Notes under the pieces: model-generated
Database searches by the model: none
What the model was told of the DNA's origin: nothing
What the model saw: the letters and a program-made list of their open reading frames with translations, nothing else
Shown here: in pieces, positions 31,950 through 49,056 of the stretch
How positions within the stretch are numbered: position 1 is the first letter of the stretch
Layout of the letters: each line of letters opens with the position of its first letter
Origin: Spirochaetales bacterium
GTDB taxonomy: Bacteria; Spirochaetota; Spirochaetia; Treponematales; Treponemataceae
Direction of reading: 5' to 3'
Length of the DNA stretch: 58,880 nucleotides
NCBI GenBank assembly: GCA_028725265.1
Contig: JAQYSN010000039.1
Span: forward strand, 1 to 58,880
Translations under genes and position numbers: made by a program

Positions 31950-32012
31950 ATCTGGCAAAAGCCCCACTACATAACACAAAATTGAAGAAAGATTTATTTT
32001 GAATTGTGTACG

Positions 32013-32387
32013 TTAATTTTCAATATCCTTTTGTAAAAATTTTACCTCAGTTATTTTTGAATTACTAAGAATATTATCATTTATAAAATTTTTTATTTCA
32101 AGCATAAAAAAATCCTCATTCTTATCAGTTATTTCACTTTTTGATTTTTTCGAGAAATATTTTCTTAGGAAATCTTTTATTTCTATGCTCCGTAGATCTA
32201 TTTCTGTTTTAGTTTGCTCATCACCCTTTTCATAACCTAAAGCAATATCAATTTTAATGATGAGTGGAGGTTCATCGCAAGTTCGTGCTCGAATTACTCC
32301 TAAAGATGTATACCAATCATAATTATCATCTTGATTTAAGTTATATTCATTAAATGTATTCTCCGATTGAACAACATTTCTATTCAT
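32013..32387 (-). CDS. hypothetical protein with a possible FliL-like C-terminal domain (no TM)
   Basis: 124 aa; the pattern LIIKIDIALGYE...IEIKDFLRKYFSKKS...EIKNFINDNIL..KITEVKFLQ resembles FliL C-terminal domains; very AT-rich. Confidence 0.4.
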   Translation of the reverse strand: MNRNVVQSENTFNEYNLNQDDNYDWYTSLGVIRARTCDEPPLIIKIDIALGYEKGDEQTKTEIDLRSIEIKDFLRKYFSKKSKSEITDKNEDFFMLEIKNFINDNILSNSKITEVKFLQKDIEN

Positions 32388-32544
32388 ATAGTTTATTAAC
32401 TTTTATATAAAAAATTTTGTTCCGCAAAGTATATAATCAATATATTTTATTTGTCAAATCAAAATAAATAATTACTCAATTATACTAATCGTATGAATAA
32501 ATATCAGTCAGATTTTATTTCAAACCTCATTTATAAAGACTACA

Positions 32545-32690
32545 CACAATAGACATTTGCTGGTATTTGTAATTACTCTTAAAAGGAAATATTGACTAAA
32601 TAGAATCAGGTAAAACACTTCCTTCTTTTAAGACGATTCTTAAGATTGCATATGCTCTAAAACACACCTTCTGAAGATTTATTTTTATGA
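32545..32690 (+). pseudogene. remnant of an XRE-type HTH gene
   Basis: The segment translates to ..IESGKTLPSFKTILKIAYALK.., then a frameshift, then TPSEDLFL*. In-frame stops lie upstream. Compare the intact XRE at 45424..45720 (QIEAGTTKPSFDRIINIATALGVHPADLFL). Confidence 0.4.
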
Positions 32691-32801
32691 AATATCAGTA
32701 AGAATCATAATGAAATTTGTAATTTTTTTGATCAATTTTTCCAACAATACAAGAAATAATTGATAAAGAATTTGATGCATAATAAATAAAATTCTTGTTT
32801 T

Positions 32802-32871
32802 CAAATTTTTTCCTCCGAAATTAGTTCAAAATTGAGTTTTCTTTCCATAATTAGGATGGAGGTAAAAGAAA
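32802..32871 (+). repeat. conserved 5' region shared by the two Rpn genes (copy 1)
   Basis: About 70% identical by eye to 40323-40393, including the exact 18-mer CCATAATTAGGATGGAGG. Confidence 0.7.
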
Positions 32872-33396
32872 ATGAAAAATGAAGAAAAAAGAGATTACAA
32901 TTACAAACCTGTTGAGGAACTGACTTTCACAGACGACTTTATGTTCGGAGCTGTCATGAAGCACAAGGAGATTTGCATAGGGGTTTTGGAAAGACTTTTG
33001 CACATCAAAATCGACCACATTGAGTATCCGAAACTGCAAAAACACTTGAAACCGTTCTATACGTCAAAAGGCGTGCGTTTGGATGTTTATGTCAAAGACA
33101 GTGACAGAGTTTTCGATGTTGAATTACAAAACAGAAAGTTTGAAGCGTTGGGAAAGCGAACACGCTACTATCAGTCTATGATTGACATGGATAACCTTAT
33201 GAAGGGCGAAGATTATTCGACACTAAAAGAAAGTTATGTCATATTCATTTGTACCGATGACCCATTCGGAAAAGGACTGGCTCAATATTCATTTAAAGAT
33301 GTTTGTCTTGAAAATACTGAAGTAGAACTTGATGACAAAGTACACAAACTAATTTATAATGCTTATCAAAAATTACATCCTTGTAATTTTTGAAAC

Positions 33397-45423: not shown

Positions 45424-45720
45424 ATGGAAGATTATTTTGAAATTTTTAGAATGAATATGAAATATTACCGAGAACAAAAACAAATTTCTCAAAGTCAACT
45501 TGCAATCGGAGCAGATTGCACAAACGGTTTAATTGGACAAATTGAAGCTGGAACAACAAAGCCATCATTTGACAGAATCATAAACATCGCCACGGCTCTC
45601 GGCGTTCATCCTGCCGACCTTTTTCTTCGCAACGCATCGACAACGGTCGCAAACACGAAGGAAATCTTAAAAACAAAACTCCTTTCTCAAATTGAAGATT
45701 TTATCGAGAAAGAGTTATAA
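45424..45720 (+). CDS. XRE-family HTH transcriptional regulator (possible R-M controller protein)
   Basis: 98 aa; HTH_3 pattern ..ISQSQLA.....T.G.I.QIE.G...PS...I..IA.AL...P.DLF. Confidence 0.8.
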   Translation: MEDYFEIFRMNMKYYREQKQISQSQLAIGADCTNGLIGQIEAGTTKPSFDRIINIATALGVHPADLFLRNASTTVANTKEILKTKLLSQIEDFIEKEL

Positions 45721-45739
45721 AAGCCCTGCTTTTTTAATA

Positions 45740-46246
45740 CTAGTTCGAAATTAATGCATCTATCTGTTTTTCTATACTTTTAGTCAAGTATGAATAGTTC
45801 ATTTTGTTTAAAAGTTCTAGAACCCATTTTTTAAAGTCACATCTACTTATATAGCCACCAAACTTCTCTTGTTTCTTGTAATAGTTATCAACTAGATATT
45901 TTAGTAATTTTTTATTCGAAATATTGTCTTTTAGTGAAAATGAATTATTAATTTTATATATGTAATCATTTTTTTCTAATTCGTTGATTGCCGTTTTTAA
46001 ATTTATTTCATACGCATTAGTTGTAATATTATTTTCTATTTCTATTTCAGCAGATAACCTTTTTTCTGTTATTTCCTCATCTAAAAAATTGTTTTCGAGG
46101 AGCTTTTTACAATACCAATAATAGTTTTCCAGTTCCTTTTCTTTTTTATCATCAGATAATGATTCTATTAGTTTGATTTGCTCATTTAAGAATGTTTCAT
46201 TTTTAGTTTTCGTAATAAGATTTTCTTGAATTTCTGTTTCTGTCAT
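45740..46246 (-). CDS. hypothetical protein C of the three-gene cassette (168 aa, K/E/N-rich, probably helical)
   Basis: ATGA overlap with the preceding gene; no family recognised. Confidence 0.65.
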   Translation of the reverse strand: MTETEIQENLITKTKNETFLNEQIKLIESLSDDKKEKELENYYWYCKKLLENNFLDEEITEKRLSAEIEIENNITTNAYEINLKTAINELEKNDYIYKINNSFSLKDNISNKKLLKYLVDNYYKKQEKFGGYISRCDFKKWVLELLNKMNYSYLTKSIEKQIDALISN

Positions 46247-46773
46247 TCTATCCCCTTATAATAATTCTTGTAGCCAAAAACTATACTAGAAATTTGGCTT
46301 TTGTTTTCCAATGAACTGTTGAAACAAATTTCTTTTGAATGGCTTAAATATCCGTAAATTTTATTCGTTGTAAAATCATCTGCCAATTGTTTGAAATGCT
46401 TTACCGTAAAATCTGAAAAATCTACACCATCAACAAATAATTCGATATTTTCATTTGGAAAGATTTCTATTGCTTCAAATTTTTCTTCCTTGTTGTAATA
46501 GATTGTGAATCCGTCATAAATATCGTCATTTTGGTCACCATCAGAAATCAATGAATATATTTCTTCCATTTCATCAAAATTTGATAGCGCATGTTTTGAT
46601 ATATCAACCATCATCAGCTTGAAACCCTGCAACATTTTTTTTACTTCTGGTTCATCAAGATGATTTTCTGGCTCTTTATAATTTAATCCAATTTTTTCCC
46701 TTACAACATTTTTAAATTCGCCAAAGCATATATCATTAACACCCTTTAATAATTCAATATTTAGTCTAATCAT
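46243..46773 (-). CDS. hypothetical protein B of the three-gene cassette (176 aa, acidic; positional immunity candidate)
   Basis: 8-nt overlap with the preceding gene; no family recognised. Confidence 0.65.
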   Translation of the reverse strand: MIRLNIELLKGVNDICFGEFKNVVREKIGLNYKEPENHLDEPEVKKMLQGFKLMMVDISKHALSNFDEMEEIYSLISDGDQNDDIYDGFTIYYNKEEKFEAIEIFPNENIELFVDGVDFSDFTVKHFKQLADDFTTNKIYGYLSHSKEICFNSSLENKSQISSIVFGYKNYYKGIE

Positions 46774-47257
46774 TTATATCCCCTTTCGATTGAAGTTTTT
46801 GATCATAAGCAATTTTTTCAAGTATGGCTTTGGAATATTTTGAACCAAATTGTTTTAAAAGATCTAATATATCTAAAAGTTCTGCTTCTAAAAACAATCC
46901 TTTTTCTATCAATTTTTTTTGTACTTGCCTATATCTTACCGCGCTTTTGCTATTTTTGAAACTTTTTGTTAATGCATGATCTTCTTTTTCGAGAATAACA
47001 CAAGGTCCTTTCCATCTTGAAAGTGGAGAAGCGCTATTAGCTGGCATATGATGAATTTCGAGATTATGATTTCCTTTGGTAGATTTTCTCAACTCGCCAT
47101 AGCTTCCGCCCTTAGAAGTCTTTGATACATAATTTGGATGTCTTTTATAATAGTCAAGTAAAAGATTGATTATGTATTGCTTAATTCCTGGATTGTTACG
47201 GAATGTAAATTCTCCATTTTCTTTTCTCGGTTGTGTTTCCCATTTGTTTTTAGACAT
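46766..47257 (-). CDS. hypothetical protein A of the three-gene cassette (163 aa) with an xHH...DH motif (possible HNH/EndoVII-fold nuclease toxin)
   Basis: GGAGG 6 nt upstream of the ATG; motif E67-I-H-H-M-P ... GPCVILEKED93-H94. Confidence 0.65.
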   Translation of the reverse strand: MSKNKWETQPRKENGEFTFRNNPGIKQYIINLLLDYYKRHPNYVSKTSKGGSYGELRKSTKGNHNLEIHHMPANSASPLSRWKGPCVILEKEDHALTKSFKNSKSAVRYRQVQKKLIEKGLFLEAELLDILDLLKQFGSKYSKAILEKIAYDQKLQSKGDIND

Positions 47258-47357
47258 ATTATGCCTCCGTTTTTAAATTTTTCTTGAGAATAATCTAAAA
47301 TGAAAAACATGTAAAAAGAGAATTTTGGTAATTATAGGGAATTTTGGAAATTAATTT

Positions 47358-47462
47358 GCGTTAGGGGTTGTAGCACCTGCGTAGCAGTCCCGAATGAAGG
47401 TGAGGGATGAGCCGCGGTTAGACGGCGAAGTGCGAAAAGCCCGACCCGAAGTGTAGCGCCCA
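47358..47462. repeat. GC-rich intergenic patch P2 (related to P1, inverted)
   Basis: See 35907-36027; lies between the divergent cassette and ATPase genes. Confidence 0.4.
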
Positions 47463-47535
47463 TATCAAAAAAATTCCTTGCTTTTTACCTATAAAAGCGC
47501 TATATTTGTAGTAATCCTACAAAAAGAGGTGTTTC

Positions 47536-48807
47536 ATGCTACTTAAATTCTCTATTAGCAATTTTTATTCTGTGAAAGATACTTTGACGGTGGACTTTGA
47601 AGCCGAGCGAATTTCAACAGAAGGGGCAAAGGTTCTTGCTGACAATGTATTCTCTGGAAATGGAAAAAAATACCTTAAGACGATTGGTGTATTCGGGCCG
47701 AATGCTTCTGGAAAGACAAGTATTTATAAGGCACTTCTTTTTTGCAGCAGACTTGTTTTGGAATCTCACATGAATAATGAAGGTTCTGTTTTTAATTTCA
47801 TGCCTTTCAAGTTTGACGGGTATCATGAAAAGCCTAGCGAGTTTTGTATCAATTTCATTTGCGATGGTCTTGAGTATGAATATTCTTTTTCTCTGACTCG
47901 GAAAGAAATTGTTTCGGAAAGCCTTTATTATTATCCTGGCAAACGAAAGGCAAAGATTTTTACGCGCAATGAACAGGTGGGGAAATCGAAAAGCGAGATT
48001 TTTAGTTTTGCCGATGGTTCCTTTGTTAAGCCTATGGATGTGGCCCAGAGTACGGGGCGAAATACTTTGTTTATAAGCCGTGCGAGTCAGATGGATAGGG
48101 AGCTTGCAAAGAAGATTTATAATTTCTTTTTGACAGAGCTTTATGTTGGTGTACCAAATATACCTGATGAATATGCGTTAAACCTTTTTAAAAAGAATAA
48201 GGCTTTATTGCTTAAGGCATTGAAGATGGCCGATAGTGATATTGAGGATATTGAAGTTCGTCGCGAGCGAGTAAACATTCCTGTCCCGCCTGCTTATCTT
48301 CAGCTAGGTCGCAATATGATACCGAGCATTCCTGCCATTGATTCTGAAACTATACTTCGTTTTTTGACAACTCATAAACGCAGTCCAAATATAAAGTTTG
48401 ATTTGTATGCGGAAGAATCTGCTGGGACGATTCAAATTTTTTACCTTCTTCTTGTCCTTCTTGATATTTGCAAAAGAGGAAAAACACTTATTGTCGATGA
48501 ATTTGATTTGAGCTTGCATACGGAATTGGCGCAATTTATCATCAATATGGTTCACGCTTCAAAGGGAGCTCAACTTCTTTTTACGAGCCACAATACGAAT
48601 CTTATTGATGTCAAAAAATTCCGCAGAGATCAGATTTGTTTTACTAATAAGAAGAAAGACGGTTCTACAGATTTTTACTCACTTTTTGATTTTAAGGATT
48701 TCCGCGAGAACATGGATGCCGAAAAGGGCTACTTGCAGGGAAGATTTGACGCTGTTCCTTATGTGACAGCTTCAGTCGATGAAATCAGAAAGCTTTTTGG
48801 GGAGTAA
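47536..48807 (+). CDS. AAA_21/ABC-type ATPase (RloA / AbiLi-like)
   Basis: 423 aa; Walker A GPNASGKTS, signature-like ESAGT, Walker B LIVDEFD, H-loop TSHN. Confidence 0.85.
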   Translation: MLLKFSISNFYSVKDTLTVDFEAERISTEGAKVLADNVFSGNGKKYLKTIGVFGPNASGKTSIYKALLFCSRLVLESHMNNEGSVFNFMPFKFDGYHEKPSEFCINFICDGLEYEYSFSLTRKEIVSESLYYYPGKRKAKIFTRNEQVGKSKSEIFSFADGSFVKPMDVAQSTGRNTLFISRASQMDRELAKKIYNFFLTELYVGVPNIPDEYALNLFKKNKALLLKALKMADSDIEDIEVRRERVNIPVPPAYLQLGRNMIPSIPAIDSETILRFLTTHKRSPNIKFDLYAEESAGTIQIFYLLLVLLDICKRGKTLIVDEFDLSLHTELAQFIINMVHASKGAQLLFTSHNTNLIDVKKFRRDQICFTNKKKDGSTDFYSLFDFKDFRENMDAEKGYLQGRFDAVPYVTASVDEIRKLFGE

Positions 48808-48809
48808 GT

Positions 48810-48992
48810 ATGACACGAGGGAAAAACGGTCGCCCAGATCGAAAAATGAAACCGATTATTCTCGTTTTGTGCGAAGGCGAAACCGAAGAAAGTTATGTTG
48901 AGAATCTTAAACAGAAATACAGGCTTCCTATAAAAATTGTCTCAAAAAATGAATTTATTGCCGTACTAGAAAAAAATAATGAATCCAAATGA
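48810..48992 (+). pseudogene. truncated RloB/AbiLii-like gene (N-terminal ~45 aa only)
   Basis: KPIILVLCEGETEESYVENLK matches the characteristic RloB N-terminus. The ORF stops at 60 aa, whereas the family is about 200 aa as I recall, and only ~100 bp remain before the next gene. Confidence 0.6.
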
Positions 48993-49003
48993 GCACAATG
49001 CGC

Positions 49004-49056
49004 AAAAAAAAACTTGCAAAGGCTTCCGTCATACAAACATTCTGACCTTTGCAAGT
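49004..49056 (-). terminator. terminator of the EIIC-like gene
   Basis: 11-bp perfect stem ACTTGCAAAGG/CCTTTGCAAGT; the A9 run on the plus strand gives a T-run after the stem on the minus strand. Confidence 0.65.

Follow-up and report, generated by a model that had tools for sequence, protein, structure and literature searches.

Polymorphic toxin systems (Rhs/YD, LXG/T7SS, PAAR-T6SS, CdiA/TpsA and MuF) are the closest described counterparts of a three-gene cassette, A-B-C, in a Treponemataceae contig: the same terminal domain as in A is found in these systems in many phyla, with a homolog of B following it. As in polymorphic toxin systems, the A-B pair diverges fast and occurs in several divergent copies per genome. 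Unlike their toxins, the A protein described here has no delivery, repeat or pre-toxin domain and carries a 17-residue leader and one helix, and most of the short forms of this type are accompanied by a third gene, either C or an alternative gene, T. MuF-type phage toxins have an N-terminal MuF domain and a prophage context, whereas a Pfam search finds no MuF domain in A. Three-component toxin-antitoxin systems (omega-epsilon-zeta, toxin-antitoxin-chaperone) offer a further comparison, as here, too, a toxin gene, the gene of a protein inhibitor and a third small gene of varying position are coupled in one short operon, and the copies are likewise located in variable or defence parts of the genome, in some cases within restriction-modification operons; in contrast to them, the cassette has no homology to any known toxin-antitoxin family and its toxin precedes the inhibitor. 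In type II and tripartite systems the antitoxin usually comes first, binds DNA and autoregulates, whereas here the toxin is first and B is without a DNA-binding domain. In TseN-TsiN of Acidovorax citrulli the effector is a T6SS DNase with one essential histidine, which consists of a three-stranded antiparallel sheet and seven helices, contains no known domain and has its immunity gene downstream (PMC12574953).

Layout and constraint of the cassette

The window, which is the whole 58,880-nucleotide stretch of DNA analysed, holds the following features of the cassette.

45608..47355, minus strand: conserved cassette block (promoter region, A, B, C and 3' tail), from blastn against the relatives L054 and L058
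47258..47355, minus strand: 5' region of the operon with a Shine-Dalgarno sequence and a weak sigma-70-like site, read from the sequence
46766..47257, minus strand: gene A, ORF of 163 aa, predicted short-form toxin
47198..47248, minus strand: leader of A, residues 4–20, NKWETQPRKENGEFTFR, >90% conserved across short forms
46769..47122, minus strand: putative toxin core of A, residues 46–163 (approximate), three strands and a helical bundle, pLDDT >90
47042..47059, minus strand: motif E67-I-H69-H70-M-P72, at the end of strand 66–70
46976..46981, minus strand: D93-H94, in a short helix after strand 85–90
46243..46773, minus strand: gene B, ORF of 176 aa, acidic, putative cognate immunity protein
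45740..46246, minus strand: gene C, ORF of 168 aa, accessory third gene, dN/dS 0.13–0.18

The ORF coordinates bear out what had been read from the sequence alone, namely three coupled minus-strand ORFs of 163, 176 and 168 amino acids with overlaps of 8 nt between A and B (ATGATTAG) and 4 nt between B and C (ATGA). The GGAGG reported 6 nt 5' of the ATG of A is present as a Shine-Dalgarno sequence at 47264–47268, and an AAGGGG-type purine run lies upstream of B and likewise of C. The weak sigma-70-like site at 47315–47287 has 9 of 12 consensus matches; since only these positions match and sigma-70-like sites are not enriched over shuffles, it is treated as a putative promoter. In both the promoter and the terminator scans, matches were no commoner than in shuffled sequence. 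The block shares its 3' tail with the convergent XRE gene. The GC content of the cassette is 28.0% compared with 38.9% for the window, placing it in the lowest 0.35% of same-sized windows, in agreement with the AT-richness noted earlier. Because about 8% of random codons would be stops at this composition, the three open frames cannot be put down to chance, the probability of each frame of 163–176 codons being on the order of 1e-6 by a rough estimate. Comparison with a 91%-identical relative resulted in dN/dS values of 0.19, 0.16 and 0.16 for A, B and C, respectively, with an overall spread of 0.13–0.19, and all three genes are under purifying selection.

Toxin and immunity families and the third gene

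The sequence-only reading placed none of A, B and C in a known family, and Pfam, NCBIfam, PADLOC and PHROGs likewise give no family match for any of them. PADLOC 2.0 also gives no match for T, the diverse cores or the immunity proteins, its matches being confined to neighboring genes (AbiLi, an AbiLii fragment and PDC-S01), and a literature search for the HHMPA signature returned nothing relevant. A has 33 homologs at 46–62% identity (99% within its own cluster), of which the named sources are Treponema, and a profile search extends the family of its core to no fewer than 1,801 representative clusters. It is in this core that A matches the C-terminal ends of RHS, LXG, PAAR-like, hemagglutinin-repeat and MuF-like proteins, with fusions to RHS and PT-HINT, DUF6531 and RHS, LXG, DUF4280 (PAAR-like), Fil_haemagg_2 and, below threshold in one distant member (P0081), Phage_Mu_F; these architectures and the membership of A in the family are directly observed. 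In 98% of 226 proteins no more than 15 residues follow the core, and its carriers in annotated Streptomyces plasmids are labelled "polymorphic toxin-type HINT domain-containing protein". As it occupies the extreme C-terminus of RHS, PT-HINT, LXG, DUF4280, hemagglutinin-repeat and MuF-like proteins, its sequence relationships identify it as a polymorphic toxin C-terminal domain of a very large family that is named in no library searched. The core is found across Firmicutes, Bacteroidota, Actinobacteria, Cyanobacteria, Proteobacteria, Spirochaetes and others. A likeness of the MDIxDI..KFGxKYD stretch of the core to annexins reaches only E 0.03–0.5 and is regarded as a curiosity.

The immunity-gene position and acidic character ascribed to B are both observed: its pI is 4.68, and it is homologous to the ORF directly 3' of the toxin core across phyla (phmmer 5e-21 to approximately 1e-3, together with a family alignment). 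A word-indexed search returned only near-identical copies and made B appear an orphan, but the locus-based comparison places it in this phylum-spanning family. The adjacency and coupling of A and B are strict: all 20 short-form clusters that could be tested contain B, in most cases overlapping A by the same 8 nt. About 45 residues of B are a lineage-specific insertion. The protein contains no helix-turn-helix or other DNA-binding domain in any library searched, and shows a BLIP/BamE-like similarity of only E 0.03–0.5, likewise regarded as a curiosity. By its homology and position, B is the cognate immunity protein of A and putatively neutralizes it. The proposal of a new toxin/immunity module, which had rested on a motif, thus gains support from the fusions and the conserved downstream gene; what does not hold is its newness, as the family is huge and already exists, though unnamed, and an anti-phage role is a candidate function only. 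Within Treponema, identity is about 50% for A and 25–35% for B, and divergent copies occur several per genome or site, for example L007 and L011 in one metagenome-assembled genome and two cassettes in L058.

Conservation of A-B-C as a unit stands for the universal A-B pair and fails for the trio, in which C alternates with T and about a quarter of loci are without a third gene. Among the 21 short-form clusters where it could be determined, the third gene is C in seven, T in eight and absent in six. It either precedes A or follows B, the typical place being immediately upstream of A; homologs of C (approximately 46% identity) adjoin other A-B pairs upstream in L032, L062/L071, L066 and L073 and downstream in L070 and L085. 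C is therefore a real, constrained gene and one of two alternative third genes. Homology between C and T is not supported (hhalign E 0.11; with larger alignments E 0.054, probability 1%). The composition of C is rich in Lys, Glu and Asn and its medium-confidence model is mostly helical, as anticipated from the sequence; a fold search with this model found nothing (best E 2.1), and a role as a regulator is a guess from a winged-helix-like hairpin in the model.

The Treponema-type short free-standing forms share a near-invariant 17-residue leader (consensus WETQPRKxNGEFTFR), which is far more conserved than the toxin core, is disordered in the model of A and is joined to the core by one linker helix. 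A had been described as a free-standing domain; Pfam and NCBIfam indeed find no N-terminal trafficking or secretion domain, but with the leader and helical linker the domain is not bare. The leader is alike in C-linked, T-linked and third-gene-less copies. All 19 leader-bearing metagenome genes carry the same toxin core as complete ORFs of 158–183 aa, which rules out a general address tag for different toxins. The single frameshifted exception, L052, is a degenerate recombinant with the same leader.

Genomic setting

The cassette forms a discrete block in a hypervariable site, as the similarity to L054 (91%) and L058 (98%) stops at 45608 and 47355, the housekeeping flank is 98–99% identical in relatives, and the content on both sides of the cassette differs between strains. 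Of the neighbors named in the sequence-only reading, the AbiL-like ATPase is matched by PADLOC as AbiLi (1.5e-83) and an XRE/controller helix-turn-helix gene is found in the window; the type III mod/res genes beside the cassette are supported by that reading together with Pfam N6_N4_Mtase and ResIII matches of the corresponding L054 genes. The locus is thus a variable defense hotspot, as had been proposed. AbiLi is not a partner of the cassette: the close relative L054 lacks it, and in L058 another cassette stands in its place. Defense or mobile-element neighbors are present in the window and at L001, L068, L072, L081 and L083; among 13 independent contexts examined, about half lie among restriction and abortive-infection genes and 7 of 13 are housekeeping. 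These 13 neighborhoods contain no export signal or secretion-system gene. In T. bryantii, a T-A-B cassette lies within the type I R-M operon. Searches of viral and phage collections found none of the four elements (leader, core, C and T), which argues against a phage origin.

Activity and role of the A-B pair

From the sequence alone, A had been likened to xHH-type HNH (ββα-metal) nucleases, and the numbering given for its motif residues (E67, H69, H70, P72, D93 and H94) is correct. In 38 diverse cores H69, H70, P72, G84, P85, H94, T97, S99, Q113, D129 and Y141 are invariant and D93 is conserved in at least 90%; the commonest form of the motif in the family is E-[VI]-HH-[MI]-P-[AS]-x-S. The predicted model of A is confident and places a hairpin of strands 66–70 and 85–90 before helix 91–94, with HH and DH at the positions expected for HNH, and the 24 residues from H70 to H94 equal the distance from H103 to H127 in colicin E9. 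As in the Tox-AHH, LHH, SHH, GHH and HNH-EHHH domains and colicins E9 and E7, A has an E-x-H-H at the end of a strand, a proline soon after, a second strand and a D-H helix, and as in these colicins the window pair combines a basic toxin with an acidic inhibitor. A differs from the HNH/EndoVII toxins by having G84-P85 in place of the conserved Asn between the strands, a very short helix of about 4 residues in the model, and a large extra three-helix bundle with further invariant residues. No significant profile, hhalign or fold match links A to HNH/EndoVII toxins or colicins: Pfam gives no match at E ≤1 for A or the 38 diverse cores and no Tox-* family, HNH structures are absent from the top 50 fold-search matches of the A model, a PDB sequence search gives no match, and hhalign of the A core with colicin E9 covers only 9 columns (E 0.17). 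The HNH assignment is thus compatible with the motif, spacing and predicted strands but finds no confirmation in the Tox-HNH Pfam families, the fold search or hhalign. The best and only notable fold match of A is PDB 9J9W, the TseN-CT/TsiN entry (probability 0.82, TM 0.44–0.47, 148 columns), which is below significance (E 0.19, rmsd 5.9 Å). The published description of TseN resembles the A model; there is no sequence similarity between A and TseN or between B and TsiN, profiles of the toxin and immunity families give no match to the 9J9W chains at E ≤10, and TseN has a FIX motif, nucleolar localization signals and VgrG, PAAR and chaperone partners that the A cassette does not have. With a median pI of 5.4, the toxin cores of the family as a whole are acidic, an unusual property for DNases that counts against such an activity; A of the window is basic (pI 9.69).

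We infer that A is most likely a DNase of the His-Me/HNH-like type, possibly with the TseN DNase fold. The His, Asp, Thr, Ser, Arg, Gln and Tyr residues could alternatively form another active site, that of an RNase or a nucleotide- or protein-modifying enzyme, with a convergent likeness to HNH, which we regard as possible rather than probable. This would agree with the mostly acidic cores, with a homology to any nuclease family that is not demonstrable by profile, fold search or hhalign, and with invariant polar residues in excess of a minimal His-Me site, including several in the helical bundle (R110, Q113, D129, D132 and Y141); however, A resembles the colicin DNases in having HH where a strand ends, a hairpin followed by a helix and a spacing of 24 residues, and the sole fold lead, TseN, is a DNase. 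In the proposed mechanism, the short leader and helical linker of A would stand in place of a delivery domain, and A would be an enzyme that damages an essential target in the cytoplasm, for which DNA is the likeliest candidate. Its active site would combine histidines and a metal, with H69/H70 contributed by the end of the β-strand and D93/H94 by the beginning of the helix that follows. B would bind A 1:1 and block it once both are made from the coupled message, and C or T would serve as an interchangeable accessory of the short-form pair, perhaps as a regulator or adaptor. An intracellular toxin-antitoxin-like role, in island stabilization or abortive infection, may be favored over export because the 13 contexts contain no export signal or secretion genes and about half lie among restriction and abortive-infection genes; this is the weakest step. 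Taken as a whole, a toxin/immunity pair that is free-standing in Treponema, with C as an accessory and an intracellular role favored, is the reading we consider probable.

The toxin-then-immunity gene order, the lack of a DNA-binding antitoxin, the divergent copies and the invariant, disordered leader fit an exported effector as well or better. Short-form A would in that case be an interbacterial cargo toxin leaving the cell by a putative contact-dependent apparatus, vesicles or lysis, the leader a recognition signal, C or T an adaptor or chaperone as in T6SS adaptor-effector-immunity loci, and B a protection of kin. All other family members occur within exported toxins, conservation is far higher in the leader than in the core, several divergent cassette copies occur per genome or site, and the typical place of the third gene just upstream of A is the usual adaptor position. 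Nevertheless, we judge export unlikely, as A has no signal peptide or known secretion domain and the 13 neighborhoods no secretion-system gene, the leader is unchanged in the quarter or so of loci without a third gene and the same whichever third gene is linked, and T6SS and T7SS are, to our knowledge, not typical of Treponema. It is very improbable that the cassette is an orphan in which A is silent recombination material for a longer toxin gene and B is selected against the toxins of neighbors. Such modules are common in polymorphic toxin loci; the MuF-like P0081 has a related QPRDxxGRW motif directly before its core, so that the leader could be a junction remnant, and L052 is a degenerate recombinant with the same leader. 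On the other hand, A starts at an ATG of its own behind a strong GGAGG, the start is kept in >30 homologs, the dN/dS of 0.19 for A is accompanied by intact invariant residues, the 19 further leader-bearing genes are all complete, and no long Treponema gene with the leader was found in the searches. Beyond the probable reading of a toxin/immunity pair with an accessory lies a more far-reaching proposal, which we consider doubtful: the Treponema short forms would be a distinct three-part system in which a conserved cellular or phage-derived partner reads the leader and C or T times the release of the toxin from B, so that these forms would be either an abortive-infection module of a new, trigger-responsive kind or a new spirochaete export route for small toxins that depends on the leader, and the core and TseN would belong to an unrecognized, widespread DNase superfamily.

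What the A-B pair adds is a useful member of an established type of system, not a new type; its free-standing form in Treponema, accompanied by a third gene, is unusual. Since the toxin domain and the immunity family are without a name in Pfam, NCBIfam, PADLOC and PHROGs, annotation sees only the delivery part of these toxins, and defining the pair would improve the annotation of T5, T6, T7, Rhs and phage-borne toxins. The compact and naturally free-standing version (163 and 176 aa) is suited to biochemical and structural work. Should A prove related to TseN, this recently described DNase would belong to a family reaching far beyond Proteobacteria. The Treponema form, which combines a free-standing toxin, an invariant leader and third genes of two alternative kinds, lends itself to studying the intracellular re-use of export-type toxins.

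Composition and conservation of the cassette

The cassette consists of three minus-strand ORFs, whose sizes and positions agree with the sequence-only reading:

46766–47257, minus strand, gene A (putative toxin), 163 aa
46243–46773, minus strand, gene B (putative immunity gene), 176 aa
45740–46246, minus strand, gene C (third gene), 168 aa

A shares 8 nt (ATGATTAG) with B, and the overlap of B with C is ATGA. A Shine-Dalgarno GGAGG lies 6 nt upstream of the ATG of A, and an AAGGGG-type run precedes both B and C, each time within the preceding gene. The proposed AT-richness is borne out by a GC content of 28.0% compared with 38.9% for the window, which places the cassette among the lowest 0.35% of same-sized windows. 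The minimum of the 1-kb composition profile lies at 32001–33000, which is also strongly AT-rich (26.0% GC). By our own estimate, stops would make up ~8% of random codons at the AT-richness of the cassette, indicating that the open frames of A, B, and C are not there by chance. Comparison with a 91%-identical relative resulted in dN/dS values of 0.19, 0.16, and 0.16 for A, B, and C, respectively, indicating purifying selection on all three; the value for the neighboring PTS gene is 0.01. In line with the sequence-only reading, which could place none of the three proteins in a known family, there were zero matches in Pfam, NCBIfam, PADLOC, and PHROGs, and the proteins are unnamed in every source consulted for annotation.

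The toxin core and leader of A

A word-indexed search returned 33 homologs of A, with 46–62% identity except in A's own cluster, and those with an organism name are from Treponema. Their alignment has two parts, a near-invariant N-terminal leader (MSxNxWETQPRKxNGEFTFR) and a core (residues ~46–163) with conserved E67, H69, H70, M71, P72, G84, C86, and H94. In a genome scan with this alignment, residues ~46–161 recur across many phyla, and in every case they form the C-terminal end of the ORF that contains them. Searching 1.84 billion representatives with the profile yielded 1,801 proteins at E ≤ 1e-3, 1,170 of them at E ≤ 1e-10, and 98% of 226 sampled members end no more than 15 residues past the core domain.

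Carriers of the core, by Pfam domains of the N-terminal part
RHS repeats, Laminin_G_3, and pretoxin-HINT: Streptosporangiaceae, at least 2,079 aa
DUF6531 and RHS: Fibrobacteria, 1,420 aa
RHS: Cysteiniphilum, Zooshikella
LXG: Psychrobacillus
DUF4280/PAAR-like: Clostridiales
Hemagglutinin repeats: protein P0181, 1,697 aa
Phage_Mu_F, sub-threshold: protein P0081

No Pfam model matches any of 38 diverse cores, NCBIfam and PADLOC gave nothing for the core family either, and carriers on annotated Streptomyces plasmids are labeled by their HINT domain only. The C-terminal position on varied delivery-type carriers, combined with the lack of a library model, argues on sequence grounds that the core is a bona fide, so far unnamed polymorphic-toxin C-terminal domain. 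Free-standing core-only toxins of 112–150 aa, without the leader, are present in cyanobacteria (L041, L045, L046, L051, and L033), paired with an immunity gene of 145–157 aa; the origin of these stand-alone pairs seems to be separate from that of the Treponema type.

A degenerate DNA pattern for the leader matched 19 metagenome genes, all complete ORFs of 158–183 aa, and had 0 matches in viral contigs. Because 19/19 of these genes carry the same core, the leader is specific to this toxin, and its role as an address tag common to different toxins is refuted. A leader-like motif directly precedes the core in the MuF-like P0081 (ADQPRDEGGRWT) and in P0113 (ETQHPRDAHGEF). This observation concerns residues 164–290 of P0081, a protein with a weak Phage_Mu_F match, together with P0155 and P0113. 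The ancestor of the Treponema leader may have been a junction motif in MuF-type toxins of phages. In one degenerate locus (L052, 5995–6890), the leader (NNWETQPRKENGEFTFR) continues, after a frameshift, into an unrelated domain at the C-terminus (…LERGNEKAGLMHIENAHGDDF…), with a 106-aa ORF behind it; the locus resembles a recombinant toxin/immunity cassette in decay.

The predicted structure of A is confident (pLDDT 83, core >90), with residues 1–22 disordered. It is comprised of a strand (50–52), a helix (53–60), two further strands (66–70, LEIHH, and 85–90), and a short helix (91–94, KEDH) followed by three long helices. The HNH/beta-beta-alpha-metal fold proposed for A is supported in outline, as the colicin E9 H-N-H motif (ELHHDKP ... 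RH, checked against its sequence) has the same layout and the same 24-residue spacing as H70–H94. However, the Tox-HNH Pfam models match neither A nor the 38 diverse cores, the top 50 fold-search matches of A include zero HNH structures, and hhalign of the A family with colicin E9 aligned 9 columns at an insignificant E of 0.17. The sole notable fold match is chain B of 9J9W, the TseN-CT/TsiN complex (probability 0.82, TM 0.44–0.47, E 0.19). In TseN, a T6SS DNase, a single histidine is essential; its authors place the protein in a new class, built from a three-stranded sheet and seven helices (PMC12574953). Profile searches against the 9J9W chains gave no sequence support for a link, for either A or B. 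We somewhat favor the description of A as a metal-dependent DNase, whereas its placement within either the HNH or the TseN family is unproven. Residues 128–151 (window ~46805–46876; family consensus MDIxDIRxKFGxKYDxAI) form an annexin-repeat-like helix pair that matched Annexin VI (E 0.03–0.07) in two independent PDB profile searches, a likeness that is probably convergent.

The immunity partner and the third genes

The impression from indexed searching that B is an orphan is ruled out, since the ORF just after the core is B-homologous in nearly every locus. For Treponema-type loci, the phmmer E-values of B against these downstream ORFs span 5e-21 to 8e-11; for Firmicutes, Bacteroidota, and others they span 4e-8 to ~1e-3 (immunity alignment A3). 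The Treponema-type proteins have an additional ~45-residue insertion compared with other members of the family. Among 23 non-redundant clusters of the short form (free-standing, leader-bearing A), B directly follows A in 20/20 testable cases, in most with the 8-nt overlap of the window, and three more loci agree. This strict adjacency, taken together with the family homology, argues that B behaves as the cognate immunity protein of A, and the toxin/immunity reading of the two genes is thereby supported by comparative evidence. B is acidic, as had been noticed (pI 4.68), and A is basic (pI 9.69), unlike the toxin cores family-wide, which are acidic with a median pI of 5.4.

Close homologs of C are confined to sister strains; distant ones (~46% identity) adjoin short-form A-B pairs elsewhere, located ~120 nt upstream of A in L032, L062/L071, L066, and L073 and following B in L070 and L085. 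Beside other pairs the same two positions are occupied by an alternative third gene, T, upstream of A (L001, L006, L058, L069, L072/L075, L077, L079) or downstream (L003). The idea of A-B-C as an obligatory trio fails on the tally, in which 7 clusters have C, 8 have T, and 6 with adequate flanks have neither. C and T occur together for one A gene in 0 cases, and neither was found next to long-form toxins, in which the core ends a large carrier protein, or in viral contigs. C is a genuine but optional accessory to the short-form pair. C and T could not be shown to be homologous (E 0.11, later 0.054). The model of C, of medium confidence (pLDDT 70; 75–88 in the C-terminal half), contains helices and one hairpin, and a fold search with it gave no structural match.

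Genomic setting and turnover of the locus

Short-form A-B pairs lie inside type I R-M operons (L001, L072), adjoining the PDC-S01 candidate defense ATPase (L001) or an AAA_14/DUF4143 ATPase of the same type by Pfam only (L068), beside PDDEXK_4 and HTH_3 + M78 genes (L083), and amid housekeeping genes (L003, L006, L010, L011, L032, L054, L085). At L081 (2975–7743) the pair sits between an AAA_15 ATPase with a 242-aa Cys/His-motif protein and Abi_2, with a PIN toxin close by. The motifs of the 242-aa protein, read by eye (CPYCN…DHFIP…CTVCN), suggest that it is possibly an HNH nuclease, which would then form a Septu-like pair with the ATPase. Straight after A-B in L083 (7196–8021), two short ORFs of 134 and 143 aa overlap each other; neither has a family match, and they are possibly a second, unrelated toxin/immunity pair. 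No secretion-system genes were seen in these short-form neighborhoods. The anti-phage function suggested for the cassette stays hypothetical.

The block 45608–47355 is 91% identical to L054 and 98% to L058, two close relatives, whereas the adjoining housekeeping flank is 98–99% identical. The features bordering it, in the window and in L058, are:

45424–45720, plus strand, XRE/controller gene, chimeric across strains, recombination breakpoint near 45608
47536–48807, AbiLi
48810–48992, AbiLii-fragment ORF
L058 3859–5551, minus strand, divergently oriented second cassette T (201 aa)-A' (161 aa)-B' (174 aa)

Compared with L054, which has nothing between the block and the PTS gene, the window carries a ~1.65-kb insertion there (47356–49004) with AbiLi and a 60-aa N-terminal AbiLii fragment; in L058 the second, divergent cassette occupies the AbiLi spot. 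As the AbiLii fragment matches only profile positions 24–45 of 170, the AbiL system of the window is probably inactive. The stretch that separates the PTS EIIC gene from the A-B-C block is a cassette-swapping hotspot. On the other side, XRE/restriction genes differ among strains, with the breakpoint inside XRE: the last ~37 residues of the XRE protein are conserved along with the block, and the HTH part is ~45% identical and appears to travel with differing type III R-M genes. Between the window and L058, A and B have one nonsynonymous and 0 synonymous changes each and C has a dS of 0.11; relative to L054, dS climbs from 0.15 (A) to 0.35 (B) and 0.42 (C). The block is mosaic, and the history of C is partly separate from that of A and B.

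The A-B pair is an unnamed addition to a well-known kind of system, here free-standing, and the leader and alternative third genes of this free-standing form merit experiments.
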